In this document: piece by piece, positions 1,932-19,857 of the stretch
How positions within the stretch are numbered: the first letter of the stretch is position 1
Layout of the letters: each line of letters starts with the position of its first letter
From: Escherichia phage BAU.Micro_ELP-22
Length of the DNA: 64,000 nucleotides
Reading direction: 5' to 3' (one strand)
Sequence record: OR699282.2
Notes under the pieces: model-generated
What the model was told of the DNA's origin: nothing
What the model saw: the letters and a program-made list of their open reading frames with translations, nothing else
Database searches by the model: none
Translations under genes and position numbers: made by a program

Positions 1932-1940
1932 ATTAAAAAA

Positions 1941-1962
1941 GACTCCTATATGGAGTCTTTTT
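1941..1962 (+). terminator. rho-independent terminator
   Basis: GACTCC-tatat-GGAGTC stem-loop followed by TTTTT. Confidence 0.55.
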
Positions 1963-1971
1963 CACATTATG

Positions 1972-1980
1972 TGATATAAT
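1972..1980 (+). promoter_or_regulatory. extended -10 element TGnTATAAT
   Basis: GTGATATAAT; the same 10-mer recurs at 14314-14323 and 40171-40180. Confidence 0.4.
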
Positions 1981-2007
1981 GATAATATTAATCTTAAGGA
2001 ACCTAAC

Positions 2008-2277
2008 ATGAATAACAACATAGATGCAATGTATAACAAATATAGTTGTGGTGCACCTACATTAGATTATGAGTCAACTGAAAAATTCTGGAAATTTTTA
2101 AAAGAATCAATCGTTGATGTTTTCGGTAGAGATCGAATAAACGCGTGGGCGAGTATATGTCGTGATGATAATGGAGAAACATTCTACATCACTTATGTTA
2201 CTATATATTATGGGAGCGAGTTTATAGTTCAATTACTTGAATGTTTAGTAGGAAAGGATTTAGTAGTACTTATATAA
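2008..2277 (+). CDS. hypothetical protein
   Basis: 89-aa ORF with ATG start; no motif. Confidence 0.4.
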   Translation: MNNNIDAMYNKYSCGAPTLDYESTEKFWKFLKESIVDVFGRDRINAWASICRDDNGETFYITYVTIYYGSEFIVQLLECLVGKDLVVLI

Positions 2278-2295
2278 TATACATGGAGAAGTATT

Positions 2296-2922
2296 ATGGA
2301 AAGACAAATAATTGCAATTAACGGTACTATTGGAAGTGGTAAAGATACTTTTGGAGAAACTTTTATTAATAATGGTTACACCAGAATGTCATTTGCAACT
2401 AATCTTAAAGATTCCGTTGCTGCTATTTTTGGATGGGATCGTGAAATGCTTGAAGGTTCAACTAAGGAAAGTCGTAAGATTCGTGAAGAACCGGACCAGT
2501 ACTGGTGTGATAAGTTAGGTCGTAGTGATGTATCCCCTCGATGGGTATTGCAGAATTATGGTACTAATATTTTGCGTAAGTATTTTCATAATGATATTTG
2601 GGTATTCAGTTTAGAAAAATCAATGCAAGAAATAGATGGAAATATCATCATCACTGATTGCCGTTTTCCAAATGAATTAAAAATGATTAGATCGCAAAAT
2701 GGGACTATTATTGAAGTTCAACGTGTTCTACCACATTGGTATGGTTTGGCGGCCTCTTATAATAAAGGGGATATTAATATTAAACCAGTTGAACTAGAAT
2801 CAGTACACGAATCTGAGTGGGCTTGGATTGGCATAAACAATCCTGATATAATTGTACAGAATAACAGTACTATTGATGATTTACATAAAAAAGCAATGGA
2901 CATTATTTATTCTAATACATAA
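2296..2922 (+). CDS. P-loop nucleotide kinase, dNMP-kinase-like
   Basis: N-terminal Walker A GTIGSGKDT; size and layout resemble phage deoxynucleoside monophosphate kinases; GGAG SD 7 nt upstream. Confidence 0.5.
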   Translation: MERQIIAINGTIGSGKDTFGETFINNGYTRMSFATNLKDSVAAIFGWDREMLEGSTKESRKIREEPDQYWCDKLGRSDVSPRWVLQNYGTNILRKYFHNDIWVFSLEKSMQEIDGNIIITDCRFPNELKMIRSQNGTIIEVQRVLPHWYGLAASYNKGDINIKPVELESVHESEWAWIGINNPDIIVQNNSTIDDLHKKAMDIIYSNT

Positions 2923-3016
2923 ATTATAAACAATAAGGACTGGACAATTAAATCCTTCAATAAATAAGACTATACGAATATATTTCGAATAACCAATTAT
3001 TTTTGGAGGATTTAAT

Positions 3017-5680
3017 ATGGCAGGAGATCTACTCTCACCTGGCGTTTCCATTTCAGTAACTGATGAAAGTATGAGTACCGCTGCTGCTCCTGGCACTGTA
3101 CCACTATTTGTAATCGCTACTGCTGAAGACAAACTTGTCCCAGGAAGCAGTGCAATAGCTGCGGGAACTACTAAAGCAAACGCTGGAAAACTACAGCTTC
3201 TAACATCACAAAAAAGCTCACTTGATACCTATGGTACACCAATTTTTCAAATGAATAACGGTTCTGTTGTTCAAGGTGATGAACTAAACGAATATGGCCT
3301 ACATGCAGTATATTCTTATCTAGGCATTACTAACCGTGCATATGTAATTCGTGCTGATATCGATCTAGCACAACTAGCACCAAGTGCTGAAGCACCAACT
3401 GGCCCAGTATCCAATGGTACTTTGTGGTTTGATACCGCACAATCACAAGTAGAAGCGTATGTAGCGAAGAAAGATAGTCCAAGCAGTTTTTATGATTGGC
3501 AACTTAAGCCAGTAACTATTGTAAGTGCTGAAGAAGTTGAAGATGTAAGTCTAGTAGGTTTAAATGTTGATGATTTAGTTCTACGTTACAAACCAAGCAA
3601 TGGTCAGATGCTAATGTATAAACGTTCTGCTTCTGGGCTAGTGCAAATGGAAACTTATCTATCACCAATTAACAAAGTTCCAGTTGGCTCAACTGTAGAA
3701 AAAGGTAACATTTGGATTCGTGATGGTTACACCCAAAATGGTTCAAACTATTTTGGTACTCGTTTTGTTATTAAACGTTATGCATCCCTAACTCAAGTTT
3801 GGAATATTGTACCAGCATATACTGGTAATTCATTCCAAGAAATTGAAGCGAAAAGTGGTGTACTAAACAATAGTTATATCGCATCTCGTTTTGATGAAGA
3901 TAGTAAGAGTTTCTCTTTCTATATTCAAAGTGCAAAACTAACAACAATTAGTGCTCCTGCTTTGCCACTTGGTGAAACTATTATTGAACAAGCAGGTGCT
4001 GATAGTTATATGACTTTTGTTTATTTGAATAAATCAGTTAAAGTACTAGCAGTTCCACAAGGCGGTGTTATTAATACCCAAACTATCATCAATAATCTAA
4101 ATGCAAATGCTGAAATTATTAACGATGGTTTTAAATTTAAACGTGAAACTAATGGTGGTTTAGTTGTTTCCAATACAAAAGGTTACAGTTTCAAAATCAC
4201 ACAAAGTGGTGATGATATTTTTGCTGAATCTGAACTACAAAAACTAACAGTAGATAGTAACAACTACTCTCTAATTAACGTGAATAACTTCCGTGTTAGT
4301 TATTCAGTACCACGTAGTGTAGCAAAAGAAGGAACTCTCTGGTATGATTTCGGGAACTCCGATAATCTAACTGTAACTATGTATGTTGCTGATGTTGCTA
4401 ATGATGAATGGGATCTAGTACAAGAAGAAAACAAATATGTACAAGTTGATGAACCAGCGGCTGACCGTTTAATTTGGGTTTGTCCTTTGTCTCAAGGCAT
4501 TGATGGTTATGATTTCTATCGTAACGTTGATGGTGAATGGGTTAAACTTGACAGTACTGATCAAAGTACACTAAATGGTATGATTTTCCAAGACTTTAAT
4601 TTCCCAAGCCAAGTTCCTGCTGCGGCATTGTATCAAAATGGTATGCTTGCAGTTGACCTAGGTAACACTGAAGGTGTTGTTAAGAAAATGGTTAATGGTC
4701 AATGGGAAGTTGTTAGTGGTGTAAGTCTTGATGGTGCTGGCCTATTTGGTCGTGCTGCACAACGTCAACTAGTAGTTGAAGCACTAGCTGCTGTTATTAT
4801 TGGTAATGATGACATTCGTTCTGAATTTATTGATTTTAACCTAATTTGTGTACCTGGTTACGTTGAAACACTTGATGAATGTGTAACTTTAAACACTGAT
4901 CGTAAAGAAACTGCATTTATTGTTACTGACGTTCCAGCACGTTTGAATCCAACTGGAAACGGTAGTGCTGTACAACAATGGGCTACTAATGCTAACAATG
5001 CACCAAGCAACGGTTCAGTTGGTCGTACAACTGCTTATGATTATGCTGCTCAGTATATGGGTTGGTGTCTAAGTACTAACGTTGATGGTGAAGAAGTTGC
5101 AGTTCCTGGTAGTACTATTGCAATGCGTACATATGCATACAGTGATAGTGTTAGTTATGTATGGTATCCACCTGCTGGTACAACTCGTGGTGTTGTAACA
5201 AACGCTGCAAGTACTGGTTTTATCAACAGCGAAGGTGAATATCAACCAGTAGTATACAACCAAGGTCAACGTGACGTTATGTATACTAACAACATTAACC
5301 CAATTGCAATGCGTCCTAACCGTGGTTTGCTTGTTTATGGAGATAAAACTCTATCTGCTAATCAAACTTCTGCACTAAGTCGTGTTAACGTTGCTCGTTT
5401 AGTTGTTTATATTCGTCGTCAACTAGAAATTATTTCCGAACCATTCCTATTCCGTTTGAATACTCCAAGTACTCGTCAGGAATTTAGTGGTGTAGTTAAT
5501 AGCTTCTTGGCTGAAATTGTTCAACAACAGGGTCTTTATAACTTCGCAGTGGTTTGTGATGAAAGTAACAACACCGCAGAGCGTATTGACCGTAATGAAC
5601 TTTGGATGGATATTGCAATTCAACCAACTAAGAGTATTAACTTCATTTACGTACCAATCCGTATCGAGAAAACTCAATAA
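3017..5680 (+). CDS. tail sheath protein (large, 887 aa)
   Basis: N-terminal MAGDLLSPGVSISVTDES... and C-terminal ...RLVVYIRRQLEIISEPFLF... have the character of contractile tail sheath proteins; sits directly upstream of tube-like genes; strong SD. Confidence 0.75.
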   Translation: MAGDLLSPGVSISVTDESMSTAAAPGTVPLFVIATAEDKLVPGSSAIAAGTTKANAGKLQLLTSQKSSLDTYGTPIFQMNNGSVVQGDELNEYGLHAVYSYLGITNRAYVIRADIDLAQLAPSAEAPTGPVSNGTLWFDTAQSQVEAYVAKKDSPSSFYDWQLKPVTIVSAEEVEDVSLVGLNVDDLVLRYKPSNGQMLMYKRSASGLVQMETYLSPINKVPVGSTVEKGNIWIRDGYTQNGSNYFGTRFVIKRYASLTQVWNIVPAYTGNSFQEIEAKSGVLNNSYIASRFDEDSKSFSFYIQSAKLTTISAPALPLGETIIEQAGADSYMTFVYLNKSVKVLAVPQGGVINTQTIINNLNANAEIINDGFKFKRETNGGLVVSNTKGYSFKITQSGDDIFAESELQKLTVDSNNYSLINVNNFRVSYSVPRSVAKEGTLWYDFGNSDNLTVTMYVADVANDEWDLVQEENKYVQVDEPAADRLIWVCPLSQGIDGYDFYRNVDGEWVKLDSTDQSTLNGMIFQDFNFPSQVPAAALYQNGMLAVDLGNTEGVVKKMVNGQWEVVSGVSLDGAGLFGRAAQRQLVVEALAAVIIGNDDIRSEFIDFNLICVPGYVETLDECVTLNTDRKETAFIVTDVPARLNPTGNGSAVQQWATNANNAPSNGSVGRTTAYDYAAQYMGWCLSTNVDGEEVAVPGSTIAMRTYAYSDSVSYVWYPPAGTTRGVVTNAASTGFINSEGEYQPVVYNQGQRDVMYTNNINPIAMRPNRGLLVYGDKTLSANQTSALSRVNVARLVVYIRRQLEIISEPFLFRLNTPSTRQEFSGVVNSFLAEIVQQQGLYNFAVVCDESNNTAERIDRNELWMDIAIQPTKSINFIYVPIRIEKTQ

Positions 5681-5687
5681 AACACTA

Positions 5688-5712
5688 AGGGAACCTTTTG
5701 GTTCCCTTTTTT
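5688..5712 (+). terminator. rho-independent terminator
   Basis: AGGGAACC-tttt-GGTTCCCT then TTTTTT, immediately after the sheath stop. Confidence 0.65.
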
Positions 5713-5759
5713 ATTGATTAAAATTAAATACCTTTATATTGATGTTATAAAGGAACATT

Positions 5760-5885
5760 ATGGATATGGAAGAAATACTAAAAAAAACAATACAAGATGT
5801 CAGTAAAATAGTTTTAACTCAGTTGGAATCAGTACACATACTAAATATATTTTTAAAAAATTTGGAAGATTGTCGGTATAATTGA
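5760..5885 (+). CDS. possible small protein (41 aa)
   Basis: ATG preceded by AAGGAA at 5-6 nt spacing, inside a 380-bp gap between sheath and tube genes; below the ORF-track size cutoff. Confidence 0.25.
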   Translation: MDMEEILKKTIQDVSKIVLTQLESVHILNIFLKNLEDCRYN

Positions 5886-6075
5886 AAAATACGAAGTATA
5901 CACAAATGGAAAATGGTCTATATCAGTAAACTATATTGACCACACTAAACGAAAAAGATACTTATATTGTGTTAATATTAATTGGTTCCCTGTTGATGAC
6001 ACTTTAGTTAATTAAAAATATACTTCCAGATAGATAAATAATATAAAGATGTCATTCCATAATAGGAGAATATAA

Positions 6076-6762
6076 ATGGCTACAATGCTTGATCGATATG
6101 GCGTACCGCTCGCTGGCGGTGGTCGTATCTCTATGAAACAACCAAAAGCAAAATACAAATTTCGTGTTATTTTCTTTGGTTTTGGTACTAATGATGATGG
6201 TAATATGATTACACTAGACACCAATACAGTTGGGGCAGTATCTGTATCACATGAAAATGTCACTGTTCATAGTTACAACAGTTCTGCACACTATAAAGGT
6301 AAGTACACTTGGGATACAATTGATGTTGCTTTCCGTGACTCAGTAGGTAATGCTTCTGCTAAAGCACTATACAACCAAATGCGTAAAGAATTCAACTACT
6401 ACAGTCAAGAATCTCGCATGACTGATTCACAATTTAAATTCGAAATGTGGATTCAAGAACTTGATGGTTCTAATAGTGAAAATACAACAAACTTGTTTGA
6501 AGGAACATTGAGTACTTGGGTATGTCAAGGTTGCTTTATTGAATCCAGCAACTTTGGTGATTGGGATTATTCCTCAAGTGAAGCACAAGTTATTTCAATG
6601 ACTGTTCAACCAGATGGTTGTGCTAAATTGGGTCCAAATGGCGAAGCGTTCGGTGATGAAGTTAGTGGCTTCGGTAATCCATCAACTGCTACCTCTATTT
6701 CTGGTGCACAAACTAATATTAGTAGTACTACTCTACCAGATAGTAACTTCTACGAAAATTAA
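6076..6762 (+). CDS. tail tube-like protein, paralog 1
   Basis: Follows the sheath gene; shares YGVPL..RSM.QPKAKYKFRVI and FRDSVGNASAKAL blocks with the next ORF; AGGAGAA SD. Confidence 0.5.
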   Translation: MATMLDRYGVPLAGGGRISMKQPKAKYKFRVIFFGFGTNDDGNMITLDTNTVGAVSVSHENVTVHSYNSSAHYKGKYTWDTIDVAFRDSVGNASAKALYNQMRKEFNYYSQESRMTDSQFKFEMWIQELDGSNSENTTNLFEGTLSTWVCQGCFIESSNFGDWDYSSSEAQVISMTVQPDGCAKLGPNGEAFGDEVSGFGNPSTATSISGAQTNISSTTLPDSNFYEN

Positions 6763-6783
6763 TTTTATTTAAACTTAATATAT

Positions 6784-6811
6784 AGCCTCGAATCTATTCG
6801 GGGCTTTTTTT
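6784..6811 (+). terminator. rho-independent terminator
   Basis: AGCCTCGAA-tcta-TTCGGGGCT stem (one G-U pair) followed by TTTTTTT. Confidence 0.55.
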
Positions 6812-6857
6812 ATGCTAAATAAAGTATAATGCCTTATAAAATAAAAAAGAGGTTGCT

Positions 6858-7634
6858 ATGGCAAATAACATGATTAATAAATATGGCGTTCCTTTACCAT
6901 CGGGGCGTAATCGTTCAATGCTACAACCGAAAGCAAAATACAAGTTTCGTGTTATTGTGTATAATTTCGGTACTGATATAGATGAACGTGATCACATCGC
7001 ATTAGATGTTGATAAAATTGATAGACCTACTGTAACATTTAGTACTCATAAACTATATCAATTTACTACTAATACTTCCTATATAGGTAGTCATGATTGG
7101 GAACCAATTACAATATCTATCCGTGATTCAGTTGGTAATGCATCAGCAAAAGCATTATCACGCCAATTACAAAAACAACTTGACTTTCAACGCAGAATAA
7201 CTTCAAGAAGTGACCAAGATTATGGTTCTTATAAATTTGGTTTGGTTATACAGATGTTGAGTGGACGTAACTCAGATGATACACTAGGAAATCTAGGAAG
7301 AGATACTCTAGTAGATGCTGCAACTGCTGCAACAAATAATTCTGGCTTAGTAAATGCAGTAGATCAATTTATTGGTGGTTCTTCATATAACAGTGCTGGT
7401 GTTATGGAATACTTTGTTTTAACCGGATGTGTTATTCAAAACATATCATACGATTCATTAGATTATAGCTCAAGTTCTCCAGTTGAAATGGTAGTGACTA
7501 TCAAACCAGATAATTGTATACAATTTGATAATATTGAAGAAATGTATAGTACCAGAATTAATTCACTTTTACCTGAAAATGTCAATCAAGGTTTAGATAT
7601 CATTGATCGTGTTTTTGGTAGTGTAGGATTTTAA
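6858..7634 (+). CDS. tail tube-like protein, paralog 2
   Basis: Paralogous to 6076-6762 (shared N-terminal and central blocks). Confidence 0.5.
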   Translation: MANNMINKYGVPLPSGRNRSMLQPKAKYKFRVIVYNFGTDIDERDHIALDVDKIDRPTVTFSTHKLYQFTTNTSYIGSHDWEPITISIRDSVGNASAKALSRQLQKQLDFQRRITSRSDQDYGSYKFGLVIQMLSGRNSDDTLGNLGRDTLVDAATAATNNSGLVNAVDQFIGGSSYNSAGVMEYFVLTGCVIQNISYDSLDYSSSSPVEMVVTIKPDNCIQFDNIEEMYSTRINSLLPENVNQGLDIIDRVFGSVGF

Positions 7635-7645
7635 GGAGATAATGA

Positions 7646-9753
<2,108 letters not shown>

Positions 9754-9780
9754 CTTAAACGACCTTATGGAGTTATTAAA

Positions 9781-10317
9781 ATGAATAGATTACAACAAAT
9801 CCTAACTGAAAAGAAACCAGTTTATGAATACCGAGTTAAGTTTGCAGTTGAACCAACACCTGAACAACTTAGTAAAGTAACACAGCGACTAATGGATCGC
9901 TATGATGCGTTTGAAATTGGAGCACTAAAGAAAACAATTTTTATGGAAAAACCATTAGATTTCTATGAATTAGATTGTGGTGAAATTTGGATGTTTGACT
10001 TTAAATGTCATCGTGGCGTTCAATCAAATGTACTAATGTATGAAATTGGCAATTTACTAAGCATGACAGAAGCATTGATTCGTGTTCGTAGTAAAGATGA
10101 ACCTCGTCAAATTGAAATGACTGATTTGGAAGATGATATCGATTTTGATGATGTTGATGAACCAGTTATTGGAGTGGATTTTGGCAAACCAGAAGACAGT
10201 TATGACTTAGCTGGACAACAACGTGCAGACACTGCCGTTGATGATGCAATTGAAGCATCGAAAAAAGACAATAAATACTCTCAATATATGAGTGCTGGTT
10301 TTGGTAAAAAGGATTAA
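9781..10317 (+). CDS. hypothetical acidic protein
   Basis: ATG start; acidic DDIDFDDVDE stretch. Confidence 0.4.
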   Translation: MNRLQQILTEKKPVYEYRVKFAVEPTPEQLSKVTQRLMDRYDAFEIGALKKTIFMEKPLDFYELDCGEIWMFDFKCHRGVQSNVLMYEIGNLLSMTEALIRVRSKDEPRQIEMTDLEDDIDFDDVDEPVIGVDFGKPEDSYDLAGQQRADTAVDDAIEASKKDNKYSQYMSAGFGKKD

Positions 10318-10320
10318 CAC

Positions 10321-10863
10321 ATGAGTATACTTAATGAAATGTTAGATTATGAAGACAATGAGTTAAATGAAGCTCGTCCTTATAGTCGTTCACAAAGTGC
10401 AGTTGATAGTGCAAAAGGAAAAGTAAAAGGCTTTTTTGGTAGTGGACAGATTGAACAAGGTGCACAAGAAGTTGGTGCTGAAGCCAACCGCTTATGGGCA
10501 GAGTTTAAACGTTATGTTGGACGTAAATATGGTAAAGCTCAACCATCAGTACCTTACGCTGATGTGGCACAGTTTTTTAAAGGTAACAATCTTGATATTA
10601 AACATTTAGGGAACAATCCTCGTCGTTCTTTTACACCAAAAGATGTAGGTACTGCTCTATTAAATGCTGCTCGTGATATAATGAATGACTACCGTGACCA
10701 ACAAGGTGGCGAAGAAAGTTCAGAATCACAACCATCACAATCGACCTCAACTGAGCAACCAGCACAACAAGAACAACCAAAAGCACAAGGTTCCAGTATC
10801 CCTGATGCTCTACAAAAATTAAGTCCAGAGCAACGCGACCAACTGTTACGTATGCTTTCTTAA
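10321..10863 (+). CDS. hypothetical protein
   Basis: ATG 4 bp after previous stop; Q/E/S-rich tail ending ...QLLRMLS. Confidence 0.4.
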   Translation: MSILNEMLDYEDNELNEARPYSRSQSAVDSAKGKVKGFFGSGQIEQGAQEVGAEANRLWAEFKRYVGRKYGKAQPSVPYADVAQFFKGNNLDIKHLGNNPRRSFTPKDVGTALLNAARDIMNDYRDQQGGEESSESQPSQSTSTEQPAQQEQPKAQGSSIPDALQKLSPEQRDQLLRMLS

Positions 10864-10876
10864 GGAGAATCAACAC

Positions 10877-12394
10877 ATGGATAATTTTTTCAGTACTGAA
10901 ACTACCACAGTTCCTAATGGATATGTATATACGTCACATACTGGTGCAAAATATGTATTTCTTGAAGGATTCTGGTTCAATGACAATAATATGTTAATGG
11001 TAGACCCTAGAAAATACCCATCCATGTACGCAAGTGCTCGACAACAGATTGTCGAGCACAATCTAGCTTCAAATGAATATAAGATTGGTAACAAATATAT
11101 TGTTGAAGGTAAAGAGTGTACATTTATTGGTGAAAACCGTTTCAATTCAAAAGATGGAATTCTATTAACTGAAAGTGAATTCATCACTGAATTAATGGCA
11201 GATGATCATCGAGTATATAATGTTTCTAAAGAAACACTACAAAAAGAATGGAATGCATTAAAATTTTACATTCTTCCACCATATGCTGATGATATATCAA
11301 TTCCAGCAGGTATGGAAGTAAGTGGTTTTAAATTTGTTCCAAAGAATCACCGTTTTGTTGATATGAAATCAGGCCGAGCAGTTGATCCAGCAATGACCCG
11401 TAAACTATCAGATGAAGGTATGCGTATTGCTCGTCAGTTAGCTTCTAAAAATAAACTAATTCCAATCAAATCAACCTTAGTACAAGGCAATACACGTTGT
11501 GAGTGGAATGGTAAAGAATTTTGTGATAATGATGGTAATGTAGTAATTCCAGAACAAAATGCACATGCAATTATTAATGCATATCAGCAATTTGTTAAGA
11601 ATAACCCAAGTGATTTTCCAACATTAACTGGTGAACAAGAACATAGTGAGCAACGTTTTGGTTCAGGTGAAAAGCCACAACAAGCTTCACAACCTGCTAA
11701 ACAGCCAGTATTTGCAACTAAAGAATCAATTAATGAAGCAGATGAAGAAATTGAAGAATTTGAAAGCATTACTGTTCCTGACGGTTATAGAATGACTTCT
11801 TCTAAAGGAAAAACATACGCTAAGAAAAATAACTTGTGGTATGATATCGAAAGTAAAAAGCAACTTAACACAAGTGCTTCTAAAAGTGTTGAACGAGCAG
11901 CACAGCGTGATATTTTCCGTCATAACAATTCCGGTGCTATGAAAATCGGTACAAAAGTTAAATCCAAACAAGGCAAAGAATATTCGTATGTTGGTGGTGA
12001 CAGATTCATTAGTGCTGATGGTAAGTTTATACCAAAAGCAACTGCTGCTAAATTACTTGCCAAATATGAACAAGATAAAGAAGTTAAAAGTGATGAAACA
12101 CCTGAAGTAGACTCTGGTACTGAGCAAATTCAATCAAAAGAAGAACCTAAGAAAGAACCAGAATCTGAACAAAAACCAGACGAAGTTTCTGAACCAGAAA
12201 CTAAATCTGAAACAATTGCTGGTGATGATGTACAATCATTAGCTTCTAAAATTAAAGAGTCACCTTATGCTAAAAAAATCACAGTACTACTAACTCGTGG
12301 TGATGAGGTTTCTCTACTTGCTGCTGACATTTTACTTTCAGGTAAAAAGGATGAAACAGTGCAAATTTTAAAATCATTAAATAATAATGATTGA
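10877..12394 (+). CDS. hypothetical protein with two tandem homologous domains
   Basis: TVPNGYVYTSHTGAKY... and TVPDGYRMTSSKGKTY... open two ~80-aa repeats; AAGGAG SD. Confidence 0.45.
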   Translation: MDNFFSTETTTVPNGYVYTSHTGAKYVFLEGFWFNDNNMLMVDPRKYPSMYASARQQIVEHNLASNEYKIGNKYIVEGKECTFIGENRFNSKDGILLTESEFITELMADDHRVYNVSKETLQKEWNALKFYILPPYADDISIPAGMEVSGFKFVPKNHRFVDMKSGRAVDPAMTRKLSDEGMRIARQLASKNKLIPIKSTLVQGNTRCEWNGKEFCDNDGNVVIPEQNAHAIINAYQQFVKNNPSDFPTLTGEQEHSEQRFGSGEKPQQASQPAKQPVFATKESINEADEEIEEFESITVPDGYRMTSSKGKTYAKKNNLWYDIESKKQLNTSASKSVERAAQRDIFRHNNSGAMKIGTKVKSKQGKEYSYVGGDRFISADGKFIPKATAAKLLAKYEQDKEVKSDETPEVDSGTEQIQSKEEPKKEPESEQKPDEVSEPETKSETIAGDDVQSLASKIKESPYAKKITVLLTRGDEVSLLAADILLSGKKDETVQILKSLNNND

Positions 12395-12416
12395 TAACTA
12401 AAAGGATTTATTTAAA

Positions 12417-13397
12417 ATGGCTAAAAAAATTAATGAAGCACAAGTTAAAATCGATATCGCAGGTTTAGAATCTGATGATTTGGAAACTCTATCACGTATG
12501 TTAGCTCTTGCTGGTCAAGCTGAACGTCAAGACCCAGTAGTTGCTGCTCCAGTACCATCTATGGGGTCTATGACTCCATCTCTTCCACCTATTGCTCCAC
12601 TAGATCTCGATTCTATTGGTGCTGAAGAAGAAATTGGTGGAATTGAAACTTCAGTTGAAGACCCACTAGCAGCGGCAGTTGATGATCTTTCCGCTGATGT
12701 TGGTGATTTTGGTGCTGACACAGATGAAGTTAGTATGGATGCTGAATTTTCAGAACCAGGTGTAGAAGGTGAAGAAGATTTTTCTCTTGACCTTAGTGGT
12801 CAACCTCAACTAGAATCAGTTGAAGAAGACGATGAGGAAGAAGAGGAAATTATTGAAGAAGAATTCGATTTTAGTCGTATGCTATCCCTTGCTGGTATTA
12901 ACGAAGAAGAAGACGAAGATTTTTCCGTAGAGGGTAATCCTGCTACCGATAAAGAAATGAAAGATACCCAATTTCTACCAGATCTAAGTATCTCTGAAGA
13001 TGAAGAACCATCTAACAGTACTGATTATGGTCCATATGAAACAGAAGCTGATGCCGTTCGTGATGGTCAACTAAAGACTAATGGTGTTGAAGGTGACCAT
13101 TTTGTTGTAATTGCAAAAGGCAATCAATTTTATTGGAGACGTGTTGTAGATGAAGATCTTGACAATCGTCCAGAACCTGAGTATTATGATAATGAAGGGA
13201 ACGAAAATCGTGTTCATAAATTTGAACCAAAATTCCCAGGCACTGCATTAGGAGATAACCCACTAAATGTTAATGAAAGTGAAGAAGATGATTCACCTGA
13301 AGGTAACATTGACTTGGAAGATGATTCTGATGAAGAAGTAGAAGATATTTTTGAAAGTCTCCAAGAAAAATACAAGAAATTTTTAGGAGACAAATAA
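12417..13397 (+). CDS. highly acidic low-complexity protein
   Basis: Long D/E runs (EEDDEEEEEIIEEEFDF); repeated SRMLxLAG motif. Confidence 0.45.
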   Translation: MAKKINEAQVKIDIAGLESDDLETLSRMLALAGQAERQDPVVAAPVPSMGSMTPSLPPIAPLDLDSIGAEEEIGGIETSVEDPLAAAVDDLSADVGDFGADTDEVSMDAEFSEPGVEGEEDFSLDLSGQPQLESVEEDDEEEEEIIEEEFDFSRMLSLAGINEEEDEDFSVEGNPATDKEMKDTQFLPDLSISEDEEPSNSTDYGPYETEADAVRDGQLKTNGVEGDHFVVIAKGNQFYWRRVVDEDLDNRPEPEYYDNEGNENRVHKFEPKFPGTALGDNPLNVNESEEDDSPEGNIDLEDDSDEEVEDIFESLQEKYKKFLGDK

Positions 13398-13398
13398 T

Positions 13399-13794
13399 AT
13401 GCAATATAATTATCGTGAACTAGTTGAAGCGTTAGACGAAATTACCGGAAGAGATGAAGACGAAAGTTTTTCAGTTGAAGTTGAATCCGATGTTGTAGCA
13501 GTTGATGTTCTTAAGGATATTACCAAATGTCTTATTGATATTGTTGATAAGATTAAATCTGGTGAAGACCAAAAAGAAATTGTAGATAAACTACAAAAAG
13601 CCTGTGACATTTTGTCTGACATTCGATATAATGATGAAAGTACTGAAGTTGCTGATGAAGAAGTGTTGGAAGCCATTGCAGGTTGTTTTGGAACTGAAGG
13701 TATGGGACCAACAATTGACAAAGAAGGCGTACAACACTATAATGAGCCTGGTGCACCATCTTATGCTGCACGTCAAGGTTTTGTTGGAGACTAA
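13399..13794 (+). CDS. hypothetical acidic protein
   Basis: ATG 2 bp after previous stop. Confidence 0.4.
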   Translation: MQYNYRELVEALDEITGRDEDESFSVEVESDVVAVDVLKDITKCLIDIVDKIKSGEDQKEIVDKLQKACDILSDIRYNDESTEVADEEVLEAIAGCFGTEGMGPTIDKEGVQHYNEPGAPSYAARQGFVGD

Positions 13795-13797
13795 TAT

Positions 13798-14178
13798 ATG
13801 TTTCCAGAACCATCACATAACAGTACTGAATATCAAAATAATGTACTTTCCAAAGTTAGGGAAGTACATGAATCAGATTCAGAAATAACAGACCGTATGC
13901 TTCTGATGTCAATTTTTGAAAATTTCAGAACTGGCGGTGGTTTACGTCTTAGCAAGTTTGGGTATGGAATTTGTAAAGAAAATAATCTTTATGAATTTAC
14001 AAAAATCCCCTTGCAAAGAGAATTTAAAAGTTCTATAATGTTTACATCACTTGACAGAATATGTACTTCACCTTATTATGTTGAAGGTCAGTACATATAT
14101 CTGACAGATGCAATGATAATAACTGAATTAACATTGTGTTGTGATGATTTTAAACAGTTATTTTCTATTCATATGTAA
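13798..14178 (+). CDS. hypothetical protein
   Basis: ATG start; no motif. Confidence 0.4.
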   Translation: MFPEPSHNSTEYQNNVLSKVREVHESDSEITDRMLLMSIFENFRTGGGLRLSKFGYGICKENNLYEFTKIPLQREFKSSIMFTSLDRICTSPYYVEGQYIYLTDAMIITELTLCCDDFKQLFSIHM

Positions 14179-14201
14179 GAAAAATGAATTAAAAATAAAT
14201 G

Positions 14202-14229
14202 TTGACAAGATAGAATGATGTGATACAAT
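14202..14229 (+). promoter_or_regulatory. sigma70-type promoter P1 (TTGACA, 16 nt, TGaTACAAT)
   Basis: -35 TTGACA 14202-14207; extended -10 at 14221-14229. Confidence 0.6.
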
Positions 14230-14295
14230 AAGCATCAGACATAAAGTTTTCAAGCGACACAAGATGTGAGTTTGAAAAAAAAAGAAAAAAAGTGA

Positions 14296-14323
14296 TTGAC
14301 AAGTTGAAACGATGTGATATAAT
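14296..14323 (+). promoter_or_regulatory. sigma70-type promoter P2 (TTGACA, 16 nt, TGaTATAAT), a tandem copy of P1
   Basis: -35 14296-14301; -10 TATAAT 14318-14323 with upstream TG; flanks align with P1 (GTTGACAAG...GATGTGATA). Confidence 0.65.
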
Positions 14324-14492
14324 GTTCACATCAAGACAGCAAAGAGATTTACCTTTTAAACACACGGATGATTCATGAAGTAACAAAGGAACTGATAAGT
14401 TAAATTATTTTAACACAGTTCCTTTACTTTTGCCCACGGATTGGCTATAATAGAAACTTAAACGATTTTATCCAACAAAAGGAAATATATAC

Positions 14493-15818
14493 ATGACTAC
14501 TCAAAACGATATCCTGAACGTTAAACTGACTCCAAAGAAAGCTAAAGAAGCAATGGCACTAGCTGACATGATTCAAGATAGCCTGATGATTTGGGGTAGC
14601 CCAGGTATCGGTAAGTCTGCAATCGCTCGTCAATACGCTGATGAAAATTACCCACTGCGTAAAGATAACGTAGCTAAAATCGAGTTCATGAAACAACAAA
14701 TCGAAGCTGACCCTGAAAATGCTGATCAGCTACGTCGTGAACTGGCTGCATTTGAAGCAAAACTAATCGACCAAGATACTAACTTTATCGATTTCCGTTT
14801 GTCTCAAATCGAACCAAGTGACCTTCGCGGTATTCCAGTACCAGAGAAGCTTTTCCGTAAAACTGACGGTTCTCTTCTGAAAGAATCTGAGCTTGCCGAA
14901 GCAAAAGATTATGTAGCTGAAACTGCGGTAGTATGGGCTGCACCTAAAGTTCTGAAATTGTCCGAAGATTGGAAAGGTGTTATTCTGTTTGACGAAATTA
15001 ACTCTGCAATGCCTATTGTTCAGGCAGCGTCTTATCAGCTAATCCTCGACCGTTGTGTTGGTGAGATGAAGCTACCTAAGACTGCACTGATTCTTGCAGC
15101 AGGTAACCGTGAAACTGATGGCGGTGTAACTTTCTCTCTTGCTACACCACTGCGTGACCGTATGACTCACATTGAGATGATTCCTTATCATCAAGATTGG
15201 ATTAACGATTATGCGATTGCAAAACGTTTGAACCCAGCAACTGTTGCGTTCATCAACAACACTGGTTCTAAGTACTTTAACACACTTAGTCCACAAGATC
15301 CTTCTCACAGTGGTGGTACTTCTCCACGTTCATGGGAAGCAGTAGCACGCTACGAAGATCTCAAGAAAACTAAGACAATTGATAAAGAAGTGTTCCGTGC
15401 AATGATTGCTGGTCGTGTTGGTGAAGGTGTTGCAACTGAATACATTGAGTACGTTGAGAACGTTGCTAAACTACCAGATACTATGTCTATTCTGTCTGGT
15501 GAAATCAAAGAAATCGACGCAACGCTGGATATTTCTGCGAACTACTTTATCACTCTGAACTTGGTTTATAAAATTATCGACCTGTTCAATGAGAAGCAAG
15601 AACAACGTCTACCAGTGGAAGAATGGGGTAAACTGTGTAACAACTTCATCACCTTCCTAGACCATAACTTCTCTGCAACTCAAGCAGAACTGGCAGTACT
15701 GGCAATTCGTACCATCACGCTTCATAAGGTTGCGATTTCCATTAAAGATGTACCAGCGTTTAAAGATTTCATCGCTAAGTACTCTGATCTTGTACGTAAA
15801 GCACGCTCTCTTGGCTAA
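14493..15818 (+). CDS. MoxR-family AAA+ ATPase
   Basis: Walker A GSPGIGKS (14595-14618); Walker B ILFDEINSA; MoxR-like blocks RLSQIEPSDLRGIP and ALILAAGNRETDGG. Confidence 0.8.
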   Translation: MTTQNDILNVKLTPKKAKEAMALADMIQDSLMIWGSPGIGKSAIARQYADENYPLRKDNVAKIEFMKQQIEADPENADQLRRELAAFEAKLIDQDTNFIDFRLSQIEPSDLRGIPVPEKLFRKTDGSLLKESELAEAKDYVAETAVVWAAPKVLKLSEDWKGVILFDEINSAMPIVQAASYQLILDRCVGEMKLPKTALILAAGNRETDGGVTFSLATPLRDRMTHIEMIPYHQDWINDYAIAKRLNPATVAFINNTGSKYFNTLSPQDPSHSGGTSPRSWEAVARYEDLKKTKTIDKEVFRAMIAGRVGEGVATEYIEYVENVAKLPDTMSILSGEIKEIDATLDISANYFITLNLVYKIIDLFNEKQEQRLPVEEWGKLCNNFITFLDHNFSATQAELAVLAIRTITLHKVAISIKDVPAFKDFIAKYSDLVRKARSLG

Positions 15819-15833
15819 TTAACAAAGAGTTGT

Positions 15834-15870
15834 TGACAAGAAGGATGCCTAATGGTATCCTTCTTTTATC
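15834..15870 (+). promoter_or_regulatory. intergenic TTGACA box overlapping a weak hairpin (possible internal promoter or attenuator)
   Basis: GTTGACAAG at 15833-15841; AAGGAT...ATCCTT stem then T-rich tract; -10 candidate TATCCT is weak. Confidence 0.3.
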
Positions 15871-15892
15871 TTAACTAAACGAGGAAATATAC

Positions 15893-17317
15893 ATGTCAGA
15901 TAACAAATCTACTTCAAGATTCAATGAAGTATCTCCGGCACTCCAGAAAGAATGTCAAGAACGTCTGGTTCTGGCTCGTACATCTTTGATGTTAACTGCA
16001 CCATTCTTTGGTGTACTCGCTTCACGTTTACGTCCAGTTCCTAATAATACATGGTGTCGTACTCTAGCAGTGGATGGTAAACATCTATTCTACAACGTAG
16101 AATTTGTAATGGGCATTCAAGACCCATCTAAAAAGAAAGAATATGAAGAAGCTATTCGTGAAAAGCACCCTGAAGTTACAGACGAACAATTAAAAGAAAT
16201 GACTGAAGGTTTGACTGATGAAAACCTTGTTGCTGTAATTTGTCATGAAATTCTACACTGTGCTTACGATCACTTCCTTCGTCGTGGTATGCGTGATCCG
16301 CAACGTTATAACCGTGCAGCGGATTATGCCATTAACCAAATCATCGTTCGTGAGAAAATTGGAAAAATCCAAAGTTCATGGTTGTATGATAAAAAATATG
16401 AAGGTATGACCGCAGAAGAGATTTACATTCTTCTTGAAGAAGAAGAACAAAAAGAAGATGGTGAAGGTGAAGGTCAACCACAAAGTGGTGGTGGCGAAGG
16501 TGAAGGTAAAAATCGCGGTACTTTTGGCGATATTAAAGATGGTAAGGGTAAACCAAAAGGTACTACCATTGACCAGCATGACGTTCCACAAGAAGGTCAA
16601 GAGGGTGGTTCAAGTGAACAGCAAAAACGTGATTACATGGATGATTTCAAAACAGCAATGATGAATGCTGCTCGTGCAGGTGGTACACCAGCAGAAATCG
16701 CTCGTATGATTAACAACTTTAAAGAACCAAAGATTGACTGGCGTTCAAAACTTCAACGTACACTTCGTAGTTGGTTGAAGTCTGATGCAACATATCAAAA
16801 TCCGAATCGTCGTTCTTGGGGTGCAGGTTTTGGTTCTAATGGTTCATTCTATGGTAATCCAATTTACCCAGGGATGAAACCAGATGATGATATTGATATT
16901 GCGATTGCACTAGATGCTTCTGGGTCTATTTCTGAAGATATGCTTCGTGATTTCATTAGTGAAGTTCTTGGCATCACTAAACAATTCAAACAGTTTAAGA
17001 TTCGTATCATGACTTTTGATACTGAAGTTTATACTGTAAAGGATTACAAAACTGGCGAAGAACGTAAGATTCTGGAATATCCAGTAAAAGGTGGTGGTGG
17101 TACTGACTTTGAAGCAGTATGGGTTCATATGAAGAACGACAACTACAAGCCTAAACAGCTTGTAATGTTTACTGATGGTGAACCGTGGCAGTCATGGGGT
17201 GATCCAAACTACTGTAAAACACTGTTCGTGATTCACAGTAACCCAAATAAAGTTGCACCATTTGGTGAGACTGTACACTACGAATATGAAGCTGATAAAA
17301 AGCGTCAACGTAGTTAA
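15893..17317 (+). CDS. VWA-domain protein with an N-terminal HExxH (metallopeptidase-like) domain
   Basis: HEILHCAYDH in the N-terminal half; complete MIDAS in the C-terminal half (DASGS ... GGGTD ... FTDGEP). Confidence 0.75.
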   Translation: MSDNKSTSRFNEVSPALQKECQERLVLARTSLMLTAPFFGVLASRLRPVPNNTWCRTLAVDGKHLFYNVEFVMGIQDPSKKKEYEEAIREKHPEVTDEQLKEMTEGLTDENLVAVICHEILHCAYDHFLRRGMRDPQRYNRAADYAINQIIVREKIGKIQSSWLYDKKYEGMTAEEIYILLEEEEQKEDGEGEGQPQSGGGEGEGKNRGTFGDIKDGKGKPKGTTIDQHDVPQEGQEGGSSEQQKRDYMDDFKTAMMNAARAGGTPAEIARMINNFKEPKIDWRSKLQRTLRSWLKSDATYQNPNRRSWGAGFGSNGSFYGNPIYPGMKPDDDIDIAIALDASGSISEDMLRDFISEVLGITKQFKQFKIRIMTFDTEVYTVKDYKTGEERKILEYPVKGGGGTDFEAVWVHMKNDNYKPKQLVMFTDGEPWQSWGDPNYCKTLFVIHSNPNKVAPFGETVHYEYEADKKRQRS

Positions 17318-17329
17318 GTACTAAATAAT

Positions 17330-17360
17330 GAGAACGGAATTTTCCGTTCTCTTCTTTTAT
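17330..17360 (+). terminator. rho-independent terminator
   Basis: GAGAACGG-aatt-CCGTTCTC stem followed by TTCTTTTAT. Confidence 0.65.
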
Positions 17361-17362
17361 AA

Positions 17363-17392
17363 GTGGGACAACTTATAAAAATATGATATAAT
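17363..17392 (+). promoter_or_regulatory. sigma70-type promoter (GTGGGACAA, 16 nt, TGaTATAAT)
   Basis: -35-like GGGACA 17365-17370; TG 17384-17385; TATAAT 17387-17392; same architecture at 63127-63154. Confidence 0.5.
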
Positions 17393-17411
17393 AGTTAATG
17401 TACCAATATAC

Positions 17412-17672
17412 ATGGAGAGTATTAAAATGGAACAAGAAAATAATCAAATTCAACTAACCCTTCTAGACCTAATCAATGCTGCAAAAATCATGGAAGCTGC
17501 TGTTGCACGAAACACCTTTAAAGTTGAAGAACTTGTCGAGGTTGCTCCAGTTGTATCTAAATTTGTTTCTTTTGCAAATGTCGCTCTTGAAGATATTAAA
17601 GCACAAGAAGATGCAGCTAAAGAAGAAGCTGAATCACAAGATAGTGAAACTCAAGAAGATAAAGGAGAATAA
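17412..17672 (+). CDS. small acidic hypothetical protein
   Basis: ORF from ATG 17412; the ATG at 17427 has a GGAG SD 9 nt upstream and may be the real start. Confidence 0.4.
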   Translation: MESIKMEQENNQIQLTLLDLINAAKIMEAAVARNTFKVEELVEVAPVVSKFVSFANVALEDIKAQEDAAKEEAESQDSETQEDKGE

Positions 17673-17674
17673 TT

Positions 17675-18331
17675 ATGGCAGCTATTCGTCATGTTGGTGT
17701 AATGCGTAATACAGGTTCTCGTGTTTTTGTTGTTTGGCGTTCACTACCAGATGATCCTGAACACTGCCTTATCGTTTATCGTGATTCACTACCAGAAGCA
17801 TATGTTCACGCAGTAACTGATATTGTTATGGGTCATGGTCAATCTAATATTGATTTGTGGGAAGTAATGCATAAAATTGGTTATCTCGATGGACGCAAAA
17901 TGCTAGATGTTCTACACAACATGCAGCATCTACGTCGCGTTCGTACTTGTGACATTGATATGCACACTGGTGGTAATAATAAAATTTCTCTTGATGTTCT
18001 AAACAAAGCATTAGATGAGAATCAAGCGAAAGTACAAGAAGATGGTAAAGTAAAAGACTTTAACCCATTCAATCCACAAGAAGCAGACACTAAAGTAGAA
18101 GAAGCTACTATTGTAGAAAAACTTCTCTCTGATGCACAAAAATTTGAACAACTGGCTAAAGAACATTATGAACGTGCATACAATTTAGAGCCAAGCTTGC
18201 GTCCGCAAACACAAGTTGTTGAACAACCGAAAGATAGTAAAACAATTTATCTAGAAATTCCAGAAGGTATTTCACAGACTAAAGCTATTGAGAAAGTAAA
18301 ACAACTATTTGCAGAACGTAAAGCAAAATAA
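17675..18331 (+). CDS. hypothetical protein
   Basis: ATG 3 bp after previous stop. Confidence 0.4.
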   Translation: MAAIRHVGVMRNTGSRVFVVWRSLPDDPEHCLIVYRDSLPEAYVHAVTDIVMGHGQSNIDLWEVMHKIGYLDGRKMLDVLHNMQHLRRVRTCDIDMHTGGNNKISLDVLNKALDENQAKVQEDGKVKDFNPFNPQEADTKVEEATIVEKLLSDAQKFEQLAKEHYERAYNLEPSLRPQTQVVEQPKDSKTIYLEIPEGISQTKAIEKVKQLFAERKAK

Positions 18332-18334: not shown

Positions 18335-18928
18335 ATGAAAAAGAATGAATTAGATGAAGCAATTAAAGGTTTATCTAATGTATGTTTTAGTGGCGGGGCA
18401 GCAGGTGCTGACCGCCTTTTTTCTATCTATGCAAAAAATAATGGATTTGAAGTTATTAATTTTTCATTCAAAGGTCATGAGCATAGTGTAGATGAAAGTA
18501 CTATATTAGAAATACCATCCAATATTCTATCTGATATTTCTATATTAAATCAACTAAACATTGCATGTTACTCGTTGCAGCGAAAAGTGCCAAAGCCTGG
18601 TTCTTATGTTTACAACTTACTTGCAAGGAATAGTTATCAGATACTTAATACAGAAAGAATATATTGTATTGCAAATATCACATCACCAACTAAGGTAAGT
18701 GGTGGTACTGCATGGGCAGTACAGATGTATATGGATTCAGTTGAAAATCCTGAAATTTATTGTTATGATATGAATTCACGTTCAGTATTTTATTTCGATA
18801 CAGTACTGAAAGAGTTCACACAAACATTCGTCGTTCCAGCACCACATGGTAACTGGACTGGTATTGGTTCACGCAATGCCACAGAAAAACATATGGAACA
18901 TTTTATTACATTTTTCAAGGAAGAATAA
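18335..18928 (+). CDS. Rossmann-like protein with GGAxGxD motif (SLOG/DprA/YpsA-like)
   Basis: N-terminal FSGGAAGADRLF; stop overlaps the thymidylate synthase start. Confidence 0.4.
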   Translation: MKKNELDEAIKGLSNVCFSGGAAGADRLFSIYAKNNGFEVINFSFKGHEHSVDESTILEIPSNILSDISILNQLNIACYSLQRKVPKPGSYVYNLLARNSYQILNTERIYCIANITSPTKVSGGTAWAVQMYMDSVENPEIYCYDMNSRSVFYFDTVLKEFTQTFVVPAPHGNWTGIGSRNATEKHMEHFITFFKEE

Positions 18929-19857
18929 TGAAACAACTACAAGAACTATATCAAAAAATTCTAGATGAAGGCGTAGAAAGCGTTGACCGTACTGGTGTTG
19001 GAACAATCAAACTTATCGGTCAACAAATGCGTTTTGACCTTAAAGATGGTTTCCCAGCAGTGACGACAAAACGTCTAGCTTGGAAAGCAATGACTTCAGA
19101 ATTACTATGGTTTATTGAAGGTTCCCATGATGAGCGTCGCCTTTGTGAAATTTTGCATGGAACTCGTGATACAGAAAAGAAAACTATTTGGACAGATAAT
19201 TACCTAAATCAAGGCGTTGCTCTTGGTTATACTGATGGTGAGTTAGGTCCAGTGTATGGTAAGCAATGGCGTGAATGGGAAGATTATAAATTTAGTTCCA
19301 GTACTGAAGAAATTCAAGAATTAAAAGATAAAGGATACAAAGTTATCGATTATACTGGTTCACATGGTGTTGTTATGAAACGTACAACTGACCAATTACA
19401 GGAACTAATCAATGGTATAAATTCCGATCCATATGGTCGTCGCCATATTCTAAGTGCATGGAACGTTGGTGAGCTTGATGATATGACGTTGCCACCTTGT
19501 CATAGCTTTGTACAATTTTGTGTAGTACAAGGGAAACTAAGCTGCATTCTACATCAAAGATCCGCTGATCTATTTTTGGGAGTTCCATTTAATATCAGTA
19601 GTTATTCACTACTAACTCATATGATTGCACAAATTACGGGTTTAGATGTTGGTGAATTTATTTGGAATGGTGGTGATTGCCACATTTATAAAAACCACGT
19701 TGAACAAGTAAAAGAACAACTACAGAGAAAACCTCGTGAATTACCTGAATTATGGCTTGATCCTACAATTACTAATATTGAAGATTTCACAATGGATTCT
19801 TTCAAATTAATGAATTACAATCCAATGCCAACAATTAAAGCACCGATGGCTGTATAA
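18928..19857 (+). CDS. thyA: thymidylate synthase
   Basis: Hallmark blocks LGPVYGKQWREW, LPPCHSFVQF (catalytic Cys), QRSADLFLGVPFNISSYSLL, GDCHIYKNH; reading frame uninterrupted. Confidence 0.9.
   Translation: MKQLQELYQKILDEGVESVDRTGVGTIKLIGQQMRFDLKDGFPAVTTKRLAWKAMTSELLWFIEGSHDERRLCEILHGTRDTEKKTIWTDNYLNQGVALGYTDGELGPVYGKQWREWEDYKFSSSTEEIQELKDKGYKVIDYTGSHGVVMKRTTDQLQELINGINSDPYGRRHILSAWNVGELDDMTLPPCHSFVQFCVVQGKLSCILHQRSADLFLGVPFNISSYSLLTHMIAQITGLDVGEFIWNGGDCHIYKNHVEQVKEQLQRKPRELPELWLDPTITNIEDFTMDSFKLMNYNPMPTIKAPMAV

Follow-up and report, generated by a model that had tools for sequence, protein, structure and literature searches.

We studied a two-gene cassette (positions 14196-17360) in a stretch of 64,000 nt from Escherichia phage BAU.Micro_ELP-22 (sequence record OR699282.2), which is referred to as the window in the following. 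The two plus-strand open reading frames (ORFs) encode a far diverged MoxR-clade AAA+ ATPase (ORF A, 14493-15818, 441 aa) and a protein that joins a zincin-like metallopeptidase domain to a VWA domain (ORF B, 15893-17317, 474 aa). Judged by sequence, the pair belongs to the known N4 gp24/gp25 type, and records of relatives annotate it so. With regard to function, we give about even probability to an accessory role, i.e., the pair neutralises or reprograms a host protein, especially a component of an anti-phage defence, early or midway through infection, and is neither a virion building block nor an obligatory assembly factor. A first-pass annotation of the same DNA had described the cassette as a MoxR-VWA module of unknown role with three candidate functions (assembly chaperone, cofactor insertion or host takeover/counter-defence). 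Both ORFs and every motif it named, as well as the tandem promoters, the structured leader and the terminator, were recovered from the sequence. Among its candidate functions, counter-defence now has an experiment on orthologues in its favour (phage Bas54 and the defence system DS-28), while an essential role in assembly is contradicted there.

ORF A carries the Walker A motif GSPGIGKS (residues 35-42) and the Walker B motif ILFDEINSA (residues 164-172). It also contains DEINSA, PLRDRM and SPRSW, which resemble the MoxR motifs DEINRA, LxDRF and GxSPRA. Conservation was assessed in alignments of 46 ATPase homologues and 48 ORF B homologues, the most distant of which share about 30-40% identity, and the motifs named by the first-pass annotation are invariant there. 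The Walker A, Walker B, sensor 1 and sensor 2/arginine positions expected of an active AAA+ ATPase (G38, K41, S42, D167/E168, N205, R223 and P278-R279) are invariant or nearly so. Taken alone, the window protein barely reaches Pfam AAA and stays below threshold for both AAA_3 (16.7 bits, cut-off 27) and AAA_5 (15.6 bits, cut-off 22), while its match to phrog_1297 is strong (E 3e-107). The 46 family members, on the other hand, match AAA_5 (25; best E 3e-11), AAA_3 (20; best E 2e-10), bpMoxR (11) and Mg_chelatase (9), with AAA_3 and AAA_5 domains found in the more distant homologues. The family profile has midasin as its top PDB match (E 2e-4), and NorQ, CbbQ and NorD are among the nearest structural neighbours of the pair. 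The AlphaFold model (predicted local distance difference test, pLDDT, of 85) shows a strand (98-102), a short helix (108-112), a beta-hairpin (114-123/140-149) and the Walker B strand (163-167), together with a short pre-sensor-1 hairpin. In this model, the beta-hairpin at about 114-149 would be the clade-defining helix-2 insertion, which is unusually long here and is bordered by the conserved motif DxRLSQxEPxDLRGIP. Given the AAA_3/AAA_5 matches of the family (20-25 of the 46 relatives), the modelled helix-2 hairpin and the midasin profile match, we accept ORF A as a MoxR, i.e., helix-2-insert clade, AAA+ ATPase. That is, clade motifs, model and family profiles place the protein inside the clade to which the first-pass annotation had assigned it.

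For ORF B, two Pfam families score above their gathering thresholds in N-to-C order, namely PF13203 (DUF2201_N, 'putative metallopeptidase'; 123.2 bits, cut-off 23.2, E 2e-35) and PF09967 (DUF2201, VWA-like; 75.1 bits, cut-off 26.4, E 7e-21). The same architecture is present in 120/120 listed homologues, and the window protein matches phrog_1314 with E 7e-128. In COG, the family bears the name 'predicted metal-dependent peptidase'. The characteristic motifs are HEILH (118-122), DASGS (341-345), GGGGT (up to T404) and TDG (427-429). All five residues of the metal ion-dependent adhesion site (MIDAS) are invariant in the 48 homologues, as are H118, E119, H122, R130, R134, N140, D144 and N148, while H127 is conserved in at least 90%. 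A profile of the zincin domain aligns with its strand and HExxH helix to the M. jannaschii peptidase MJ1213 (4qhf, E 0.002), which we take to be the minigluzincin 'selecase', and shows weak matches to M48/HtpX peptidases; these alignments support a zincin catalytic core. The structure model shows a helix-strand topology of the N-terminal domain and pLDDT values below 50 at residues 192-218, 233-237 and 297-329, and the length of the linker and middle region differs between homologues. By its profiles and motifs, ORF B thus combines a zincin of the DUF2201_N type with a C-terminal DUF2201 VWA domain whose MIDAS is invariant, and both the metallopeptidase-VWA assignment and the VWA fold expected by the first-pass annotation hold. 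The label 'HNH endonuclease' of phrog_1314 and many GenBank records was considered and rejected as a propagated mis-annotation, since the Pfam scan of ORF B gives no HNH domain.

The window is, by sequence, DNA of an Asteriusvirus jumbo coliphage. Across 14196-17360, it is 99.2-99.8% identical to slurp01, PBECO4, 121Q, phAPEC6 and other members of this group (about 350 kb), and a second group of Escherichia phages shows 80-90% identity over the same range. In GenBank, the two genes appear under the names 'ATPase', 'MoxR ATPase', 'HNH endonuclease', 'Zn-dependent hydrolase', 'N4 gp25-like protein' or 'hypothetical protein'; the records of Muenster, RaK2 and phAPEC6 already state the homology to N4 gp24/gp25. 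Based on BLASTP, N4 gp24 is 29% identical to the window ATPase (E 1e-28) and N4 gp25, an archetypal DUF2201 protein, is 26% identical to ORF B (E 7e-31). The N4 proteins fall into the same two PHROG families (E 2e-136 and 1e-135). Both pairs share the gene order, the combination of a zincin N-domain with a MIDAS VWA and the proximity of nucleotide-metabolism genes. The jumbo-phage ATPase exceeds N4 gp24 by about 90 aa. Two lineage-specific insertions set it apart from N4 gp24 and the 360-aa relatives, namely an additional helical hairpin at about 53-95 and an extended beta-hairpin of helix 2. Compared to N4 gp25, the zincin domain of the window has a helical insert of about 35 aa (69-104) in addition to the Gly/Glu-rich linker. 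Furthermore, the window cassette has sigma-70-type promoters, whereas the N4 middle genes use the phage RNA polymerase RNAPII.

A MoxR-vWA-metallopeptidase pair has also been described in group 2.2 jumbo phages (Iyer et al. 2021, Viruses 13:63). These are of the same phage type (RaK2/121Q/GAP32) and their pair (ASV44729.1, ASV44728.2), presumably orthologous to the window genes, has the same architecture. Since the pair has thus been described before on computational grounds, its novelty is low. The proposed check for a CobS/CobT assignment was negative, i.e., no family match of the window proteins was found in Pfam, NCBIfam or PHROGs, and only N4 gp24 shows a secondary match to the CobS-like phrog_249 'porphyrin biosynthesis' (E 7e-7). 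Searches of NCBIfam, PADLOC and (by single sequence) the PDB returned nothing significant for the window proteins.

Functional data are available for one pair of orthologues. Bas54, i.e., the Vequintavirus phage MaxBurger, carries bas54_0063 (MoxR ATPase) and bas54_0055 (metallopeptidase-VWA), which were studied by transposon insertion (10.1101/2025.11.20.689424). On K-12, 60/64 TA sites of bas54_0063 and 81/86 of bas54_0055 were hit and both genes were called non-essential. On the clinical isolate CFE311, insertions in bas54_0063 are strongly depleted (log2 fold change -7.23, adjusted p < 1e-5), and those in bas54_0055 show a four- to five-fold fall (log2 fold change -2.20, adjusted p 0.009); in total, 27 Bas54 genes are conditionally important on this host. 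A clean knockout of bas54_0063 is reported to be specifically sensitive to the cloned two-gene predicted defence system DS-28 (10.1101/2025.11.20.689424). We found no literature on the mechanism of DS-28. These orthologues are the only family members with a phenotype. They belong to the same PHROG families as the window pair at 24-28% identity. The window ATPase matches the Bas52 orthologue bas52_0063 with E 5e-33 (bas54_0063 and the Bas52 gene share 99.1% DNA identity), and ORF B matches bas52_0055 with E 5e-54, the zincin insert included. In contrast to the window, the two genes of rV5-like phages lie about 3.6 kb apart on opposite strands, and the Bas54 ATPase is without the 53-95 insert. 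For this lineage at least, the Bas54 data favour counter-defence and make an obligatory function in assembly less likely.

Two observations on these data are added. In Extended Data Table 8 of HIDEN-SEQ (sheets Data S6/S7), the command line of the sheet 'resampling_K-12_vs_CFE303' uses the CFE311 library and the next resampling sheet holds identical numbers, such that the CFE303 comparison seems to be missing. We also considered bas52_0056 (L011 5984-6961), the 'anti-sigma factor' gene adjoining the metallopeptidase gene in rV5-like phages, as a possible ATPase partner. It was rejected because it has no similarity to the ATPase and no Pfam match, the true orthologue being bas52_0063. The Bas54 counterpart of bas52_0056 is non-essential and unaffected on CFE311.

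Next, we considered how the pair might act. In cellular MoxR-VWA systems, an acidic residue of the client is bound by the MIDAS while the force comes from the AAA+ ring. The window ATPase presumably forms such a hexameric ring, and the MIDAS of ORF B may grip an acidic residue of its target by analogy to CbbQ-CbbO, NorQ-NorD, RavA-ViaA and midasin. Most likely, the VWA domain would capture a specific target, the ATPase would remodel it using ATP and the zincin domain would cleave it. The addition of a zincin domain to a VWA adaptor is what suggests a split ATP-dependent protease. We infer ring formation, physical coupling, proteolysis, target identity and expression timing, as well as that the Bas54 phenotype also applies to the jumbo phage studied here.

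The cellular pairs CbbQ-CbbO, NorQ-NorD, RavA-ViaA, BchI-BchD and midasin/MIDAS resemble the window pair in combining a helix-2-insert AAA+ protein with a MIDAS VWA, with similarity at profile level only. Unlike ORF B, none of their VWA partners has a zincin peptidase domain, and their outputs are enzyme activation, metal insertion and ribosome-factor release; proteolysis is not among them. The 'TM0930 subfamily' of Snider and Houry (2006) is reportedly a MoxR group linked to peptidase-VWA genes, which we treat as a lead only. MoxR-vWA couples in virus-host conflict are known from the 'ternary' systems of bacterial defence, where the third component is VMAP, an inactive STAND NTPase, FtsH or a beta-propeller (Kaur et al. 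2020, eLife 9:e52696). The window couple would share this context, and 11/46 ATPase relatives weakly match bpMoxR; the couple is found on the bacterial side in ternary systems but on the phage side in the window. No third component of this kind was found in the flanking ORFs, and ORF B consists of zincin and VWA only.

An accessory early or middle role is supported by host-type consensus promoters inside a late structural region, by the middle-gene status of N4 gp24/gp25 and by host-adapted codons. Regarding the promoters, the two copies P1 and P2 are spaced 94 bp within a 49-nt direct repeat (71% identity). Both are extended by TG; the P1 core (14202-14229) reads TTGACA-16-TACAAT and matches 11/12 consensus positions, the P2 core (14296-14323) reads TTGACA-16-TATAAT and matches 12/12. 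The near-identical sigma70 promoters of the first-pass annotation are thus well visible, where promoters, hairpins and terminators are sequence predictions throughout and P1 and P2 were called by consensus match alone. Their common pattern TTGACAAG-N7-GATGTGATAYAAT has 3 matches per 64 kb with 0 expected. When the complete 64 kb were scanned, strong promoters with a TG extension were limited to P1, P2 and a site at 40153, all three of them intergenic, and the remaining strong matches lie within or overlap ORFs. The third site (40153-40180, plus strand, TAGACA-16-TGTGATATAAT) is of the same class and precedes a gene for a ClpA-like two-ring AAA+ protein (40221-42509, plus strand; domains Clp_N, AAA, AAA_lid_9, AAA_2 and ClpB_D2-small). 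As a result, all three intergenic TG-extended sigma-70 promoters of the 64 kb would drive AAA+ proteostasis genes. A ten-residue segment in D2 of the ClpA-like protein presumably resembles the ClpP-docking IGL loop of ClpA.

Codon usage also sets the cassette apart. By the fraction of E. coli-optimal codons, the ATPase gene comes first (0.653) and the partner third (0.585) among the 42 ORFs of the window. In the ATPase gene, CTG makes up 41% of Leu codons compared to about 0% elsewhere, and the G+C content at third codon positions is 0.32 versus about 0.16. The overall G+C content of the cassette is 0.40-0.435 with flanks of about 0.35. The raised value may stem from horizontal transfer; with no less probability it reflects adaptation to high expression, since the excess is in the E. 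coli-preferred codons CTG, CGT and GGT.

All features of the cassette are listed in Table 1. Conservation of the upstream region was studied in an alignment of the window with five further phages. Both P1 and P2 are kept across Asteriusvirus, P2 in five of its genomes, while Klebsiella phage Muenster has P1 only. The weaker site P3 is conserved as well (its -10 element reads TATCAT in Muenster), and its role as a promoter is speculative. Counted from P2, the leader has about the ~160 nt originally given, and its fold is more stable than that of shuffled sequences (-28.3 kcal/mol, z = -3.3). The hairpin within it (-17.6 kcal/mol, z -4.3) is also predicted in Muenster (-14.4 kcal/mol, z -3.1), where the inner stem differs and both outer arms have lost one base each in a compensating manner. 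It is a possible attenuator of transcription or stabiliser of the mRNA. Given the hairpin, the U-rich tract and the overlap with P3, P1 and P2 could yield a short leader RNA of about 100-200 nt and P3 the mRNA. An Rfam scan of 13700-17700 with E up to 5 gave chance-level matches only (mir-239, sR52), and there is no second copy of the leader within the window. A micro-ORF of 11 codons in the leader (14368-14403, MIHEVTKELIS) was rejected as leader peptide because it is not conserved in Muenster, which has MNY-stop at the same place.

Between the two genes, where the VWA gene begins 75 nt downstream of the ATPase gene, a further terminator-like hairpin is predicted (-18.6 kcal/mol, z -6.9) that is stronger than the one at the cassette end, and the Muenster record has a terminator annotated at its position. 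Neither this hairpin nor P3 is mentioned in the first-pass annotation. It may lower the expression of ORF B relative to the ATPase, and the resulting excess of ATPase would fit a ring with a sub-stoichiometric adaptor. The terminator at the cassette end, also named by the first-pass annotation, has -14.4 kcal/mol (z = -5.3), reads as a terminator on the minus strand as well and is annotated likewise in Muenster and G17. We found no earlier description of the promoter class shared with the ClpA-like gene, of the conserved leader hairpin or of the intergenic terminator-like hairpin.

Table 1. Predicted features of the MoxR ATPase/zincin-VWA cassette (window coordinates).
Feature	Position	Strand	Details
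Promoter P1	14181..14229	+	A-rich upstream tract, TTGACA (14202), 16 nt, TGTGATACAAT; -10 ends 14229
Promoter P2	14275..14323	+	A-rich tract, TTGACA (14296), 16 nt, TGTGATATAAT
5' leader	14331..14492	+	~162 nt from P2, ~257 nt from P1; ends with ribosome-binding site AAGGA
Leader hairpin	14377..14430	+	outer arms 14385-14394 / 14416-14425, then UUUACUUUUG
Weaker promoter-like site P3	14423..14451	+	TTTACT-17-TATAAT, 10/12; overlaps 3' side of leader hairpin
MoxR-clade AAA+ ATPase, 441 aa	14493..15818	+	N4 gp24 homologue; phrog_1297
Intergenic terminator-like hairpin	15838..15865	+	12-bp stem, then UUUUAUCUU
Zincin-like metallopeptidase domain, ORF B residues 1-190	15893..16462	+	PF13203 E 2e-35
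Gly/Glu-rich, largely disordered linker and helical middle, residues ~191-329	16463..16879	+	pLDDT, homologue lengths
C-terminal VWA domain, complete MIDAS (D341, S343, S345, T404, D428)	16880..17317	+	
Intrinsic terminator-like hairpin	17330..17351	+	9-bp stem, 5 G-C, then UUCUUUUAU (T-run)

To assess how widely the pair occurs, 50,697 phage records were screened with tblastn. The ATPase is present in 815 and the partner in 684 of them, with near-identical counts per host genus. Carriers are RaK2-like jumbo phages, rV5-like Vequintavirinae, relatives of PVP-SE1/GAP31, Schitoviridae and the Pseudomonas phage Deifobo (288 kb). In N4, RaK2-like phages and four unrelated metagenomic phage contigs, the two genes lie side by side or almost so, while the distance is about 3-4 kb in Deifobo and rV5-like phages. 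Adjacent cellular homologues are indicated as well, namely by the source names 'similar to S. coel. protein 1/2' (S. coelicolor) and 'Sll7028/Sll7029' (Synechocystis). In N4-like phages, the pair provides two of the 14 core genes and consists of middle genes of unknown function. A metagenomic phage contig of 154 kb holds a cluster (1-11113) of ClpX, ClpS, a MoxR-like ATPase, a DUF2201 protein, another AAA protein and ClpP.

A side observation concerns nine records deposited as 'Campylobacter phage' (MG065635, MG065654, MG065655, MG065659, MG065662, MG065666, MG065672, MG065674 and MG065677; named C2, C5, C12, C15, A12a, A13b and A140-A142). Their ATPase gene is 97-99% identical to that of rV5-like coliphages, such that the host labels look wrong or the samples contaminated.

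The link to proteostasis, i.e., the promoter class shared with a ClpA-like unfoldase and the contig in which the pair stands between ClpX/ClpS and ClpP, is in line with an accessory role directed at host proteins. Taken further, the pair would be an unrecognised counter-immunity enzyme, namely a split, ATP-dependent and MIDAS-targeted metalloprotease (MoxR ring, VWA clamp for the substrate, zincin as the blade) by which a particular defence protein of the host is unfolded and cut. In these jumbo phages, it would form a small early 'proteostasis regulon' with the ClpA-like unfoldase under the promoter class TTGACA-16-TGTGATAYAAT, with the leader hairpin and the intergenic terminator setting the ATPase:protease ratio. 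We regard this extended version as possible but doubtful.

Several points weigh against an accessory role in counter-defence. The functional data come from a preprint, and the orthologues it deals with have only 24-28% identity to the window pair. Since insertions in the metallopeptidase gene have a far smaller effect than those in the ATPase gene (-2.2 vs -7.2), the two proteins need not be obligately coupled, and the ATPase may act without its peptidase-VWA partner. Protease activity, ring and substrate are predictions for the family as a whole. A gene that is purely accessory and directed against defence would not usually be expected among the 14 core genes of N4-like phages. Finally, the cassette adjoins virion genes, and the ATPase homologue gp265c was detected with 6 peptides (19% coverage) in CsCl-purified virions of phAPEC6.

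The last two points at the same time speak for a virion-assembly chaperone with processing protease, where the pair folds or assembles structural proteins and the peptidase trims them. Iyer et al. (2021) proposed this for exactly these group 2.2 jumbo phages, modelled on MoxR-like p618 and VWA p892 of the Acidianus two-tailed virus. The first-pass annotation had correctly placed the cassette between structural and nucleotide-metabolism genes; according to the RaK2 record, the RaK2 homologues of the genes directly upstream are virion structural proteins, and a thymidylate synthase gene (18928-19857) follows downstream. The high expression predicted from codon usage would fit assembly, too. However, the same RaK2 record marks the neighbours ORF049-051 as 'virion structural protein' but not the Gp24/Gp25 homologues. 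Similarly, the partner gp264c is absent from phAPEC6 virions, whereas thymidylate synthase was detected there, i.e., the virion list includes non-structural proteins. The possibility that both proteins are virion components thus finds no support for the partner, with the ATPase peptides of one preparation as a loose end. Most directly, both Bas54 orthologues tolerate saturating transposon insertion on K-12, i.e., infective virions form without the pair. In addition, the pair is shared by N4-like podoviruses and by myoviruses whose architecture is very different, it belongs to the middle genes in N4, among nucleotide-metabolism genes, and its promoters in the window are of host-type consensus inside an otherwise late structural region. 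Taken together, we consider an assembly function unlikely.

A general role in proteostasis or host takeover alongside the ClpA-like unfoldase, with the Bas54/DS-28 phenotype being indirect, would be in accordance with the shared promoter class, the single phage contig with the ClpX-ClpS-(pair)-AAA-ClpP cluster, the core status in N4-like phages and the broad host-dependent effects seen for 27 Bas54 genes on CFE311. We still hold it rather unlikely: the clean ATPase knockout is reported to be specifically sensitive to one cloned two-gene system, and there is no fitness cost on K-12. Very improbable in our view is metal-cofactor insertion or enzyme activation in the manner of NorQ-NorD, CbbQ-CbbO, CobS-CobT or BchI-BchD, with thymidylate synthase, dCTP deaminase or ribonucleotide reductase as client. 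The recurrent linkage to genes for thymidylate synthase or dCTP deaminase (window, N4, roseophages) and to ThyX or DHFR in metagenomic contigs is also explained by a shared middle-gene module. While NorQ, CbbQ and NorD are structural neighbours and N4 gp24 weakly matches the CobS-like phrog_249, the invariant HExxH zincin core points to hydrolysis rather than chelation, and no CobT- or NorD-specific region is present. Moreover, every host requires nucleotide metabolism, yet the Bas54 genes are dispensable on K-12.

With about 700-800 sequenced genomes, few unexplained modules are as common as this pair among the large virulent phages that infect Gram-negative bacteria. Should the Bas54 lead on counter-defence prove right, targeted ATP-driven proteolysis would be a new enzymatic route of immune evasion, with a bearing on which phages to choose for therapy when a strain has the cognate defence system. 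On the level of the window itself, the value is modest, i.e., the 'HNH endonuclease' and 'anti-sigma factor' mis-annotations are corrected and a defined transcription unit is supplied.

Finally, we note some features of neighbouring genes. The three ORFs directly upstream of the cassette (10877-13794), whose RaK2 counterparts are ORF049-051, are without Pfam match, and the ORF at 12417-13397 is extremely acidic and of low complexity. Between the cassette and the thymidylate synthase gene, an ORF of 197 aa (18335-18928) shows a sub-threshold match to YAcAr (YspA/SLOG-related; E 5e-4, 20 bits vs cut-off 28). Further downstream, the minus strand holds an ORF of 3333 aa (42547-52548) that is similar in size to gp245 (382 kDa), a hypothetical protein detected in phAPEC6 virions.

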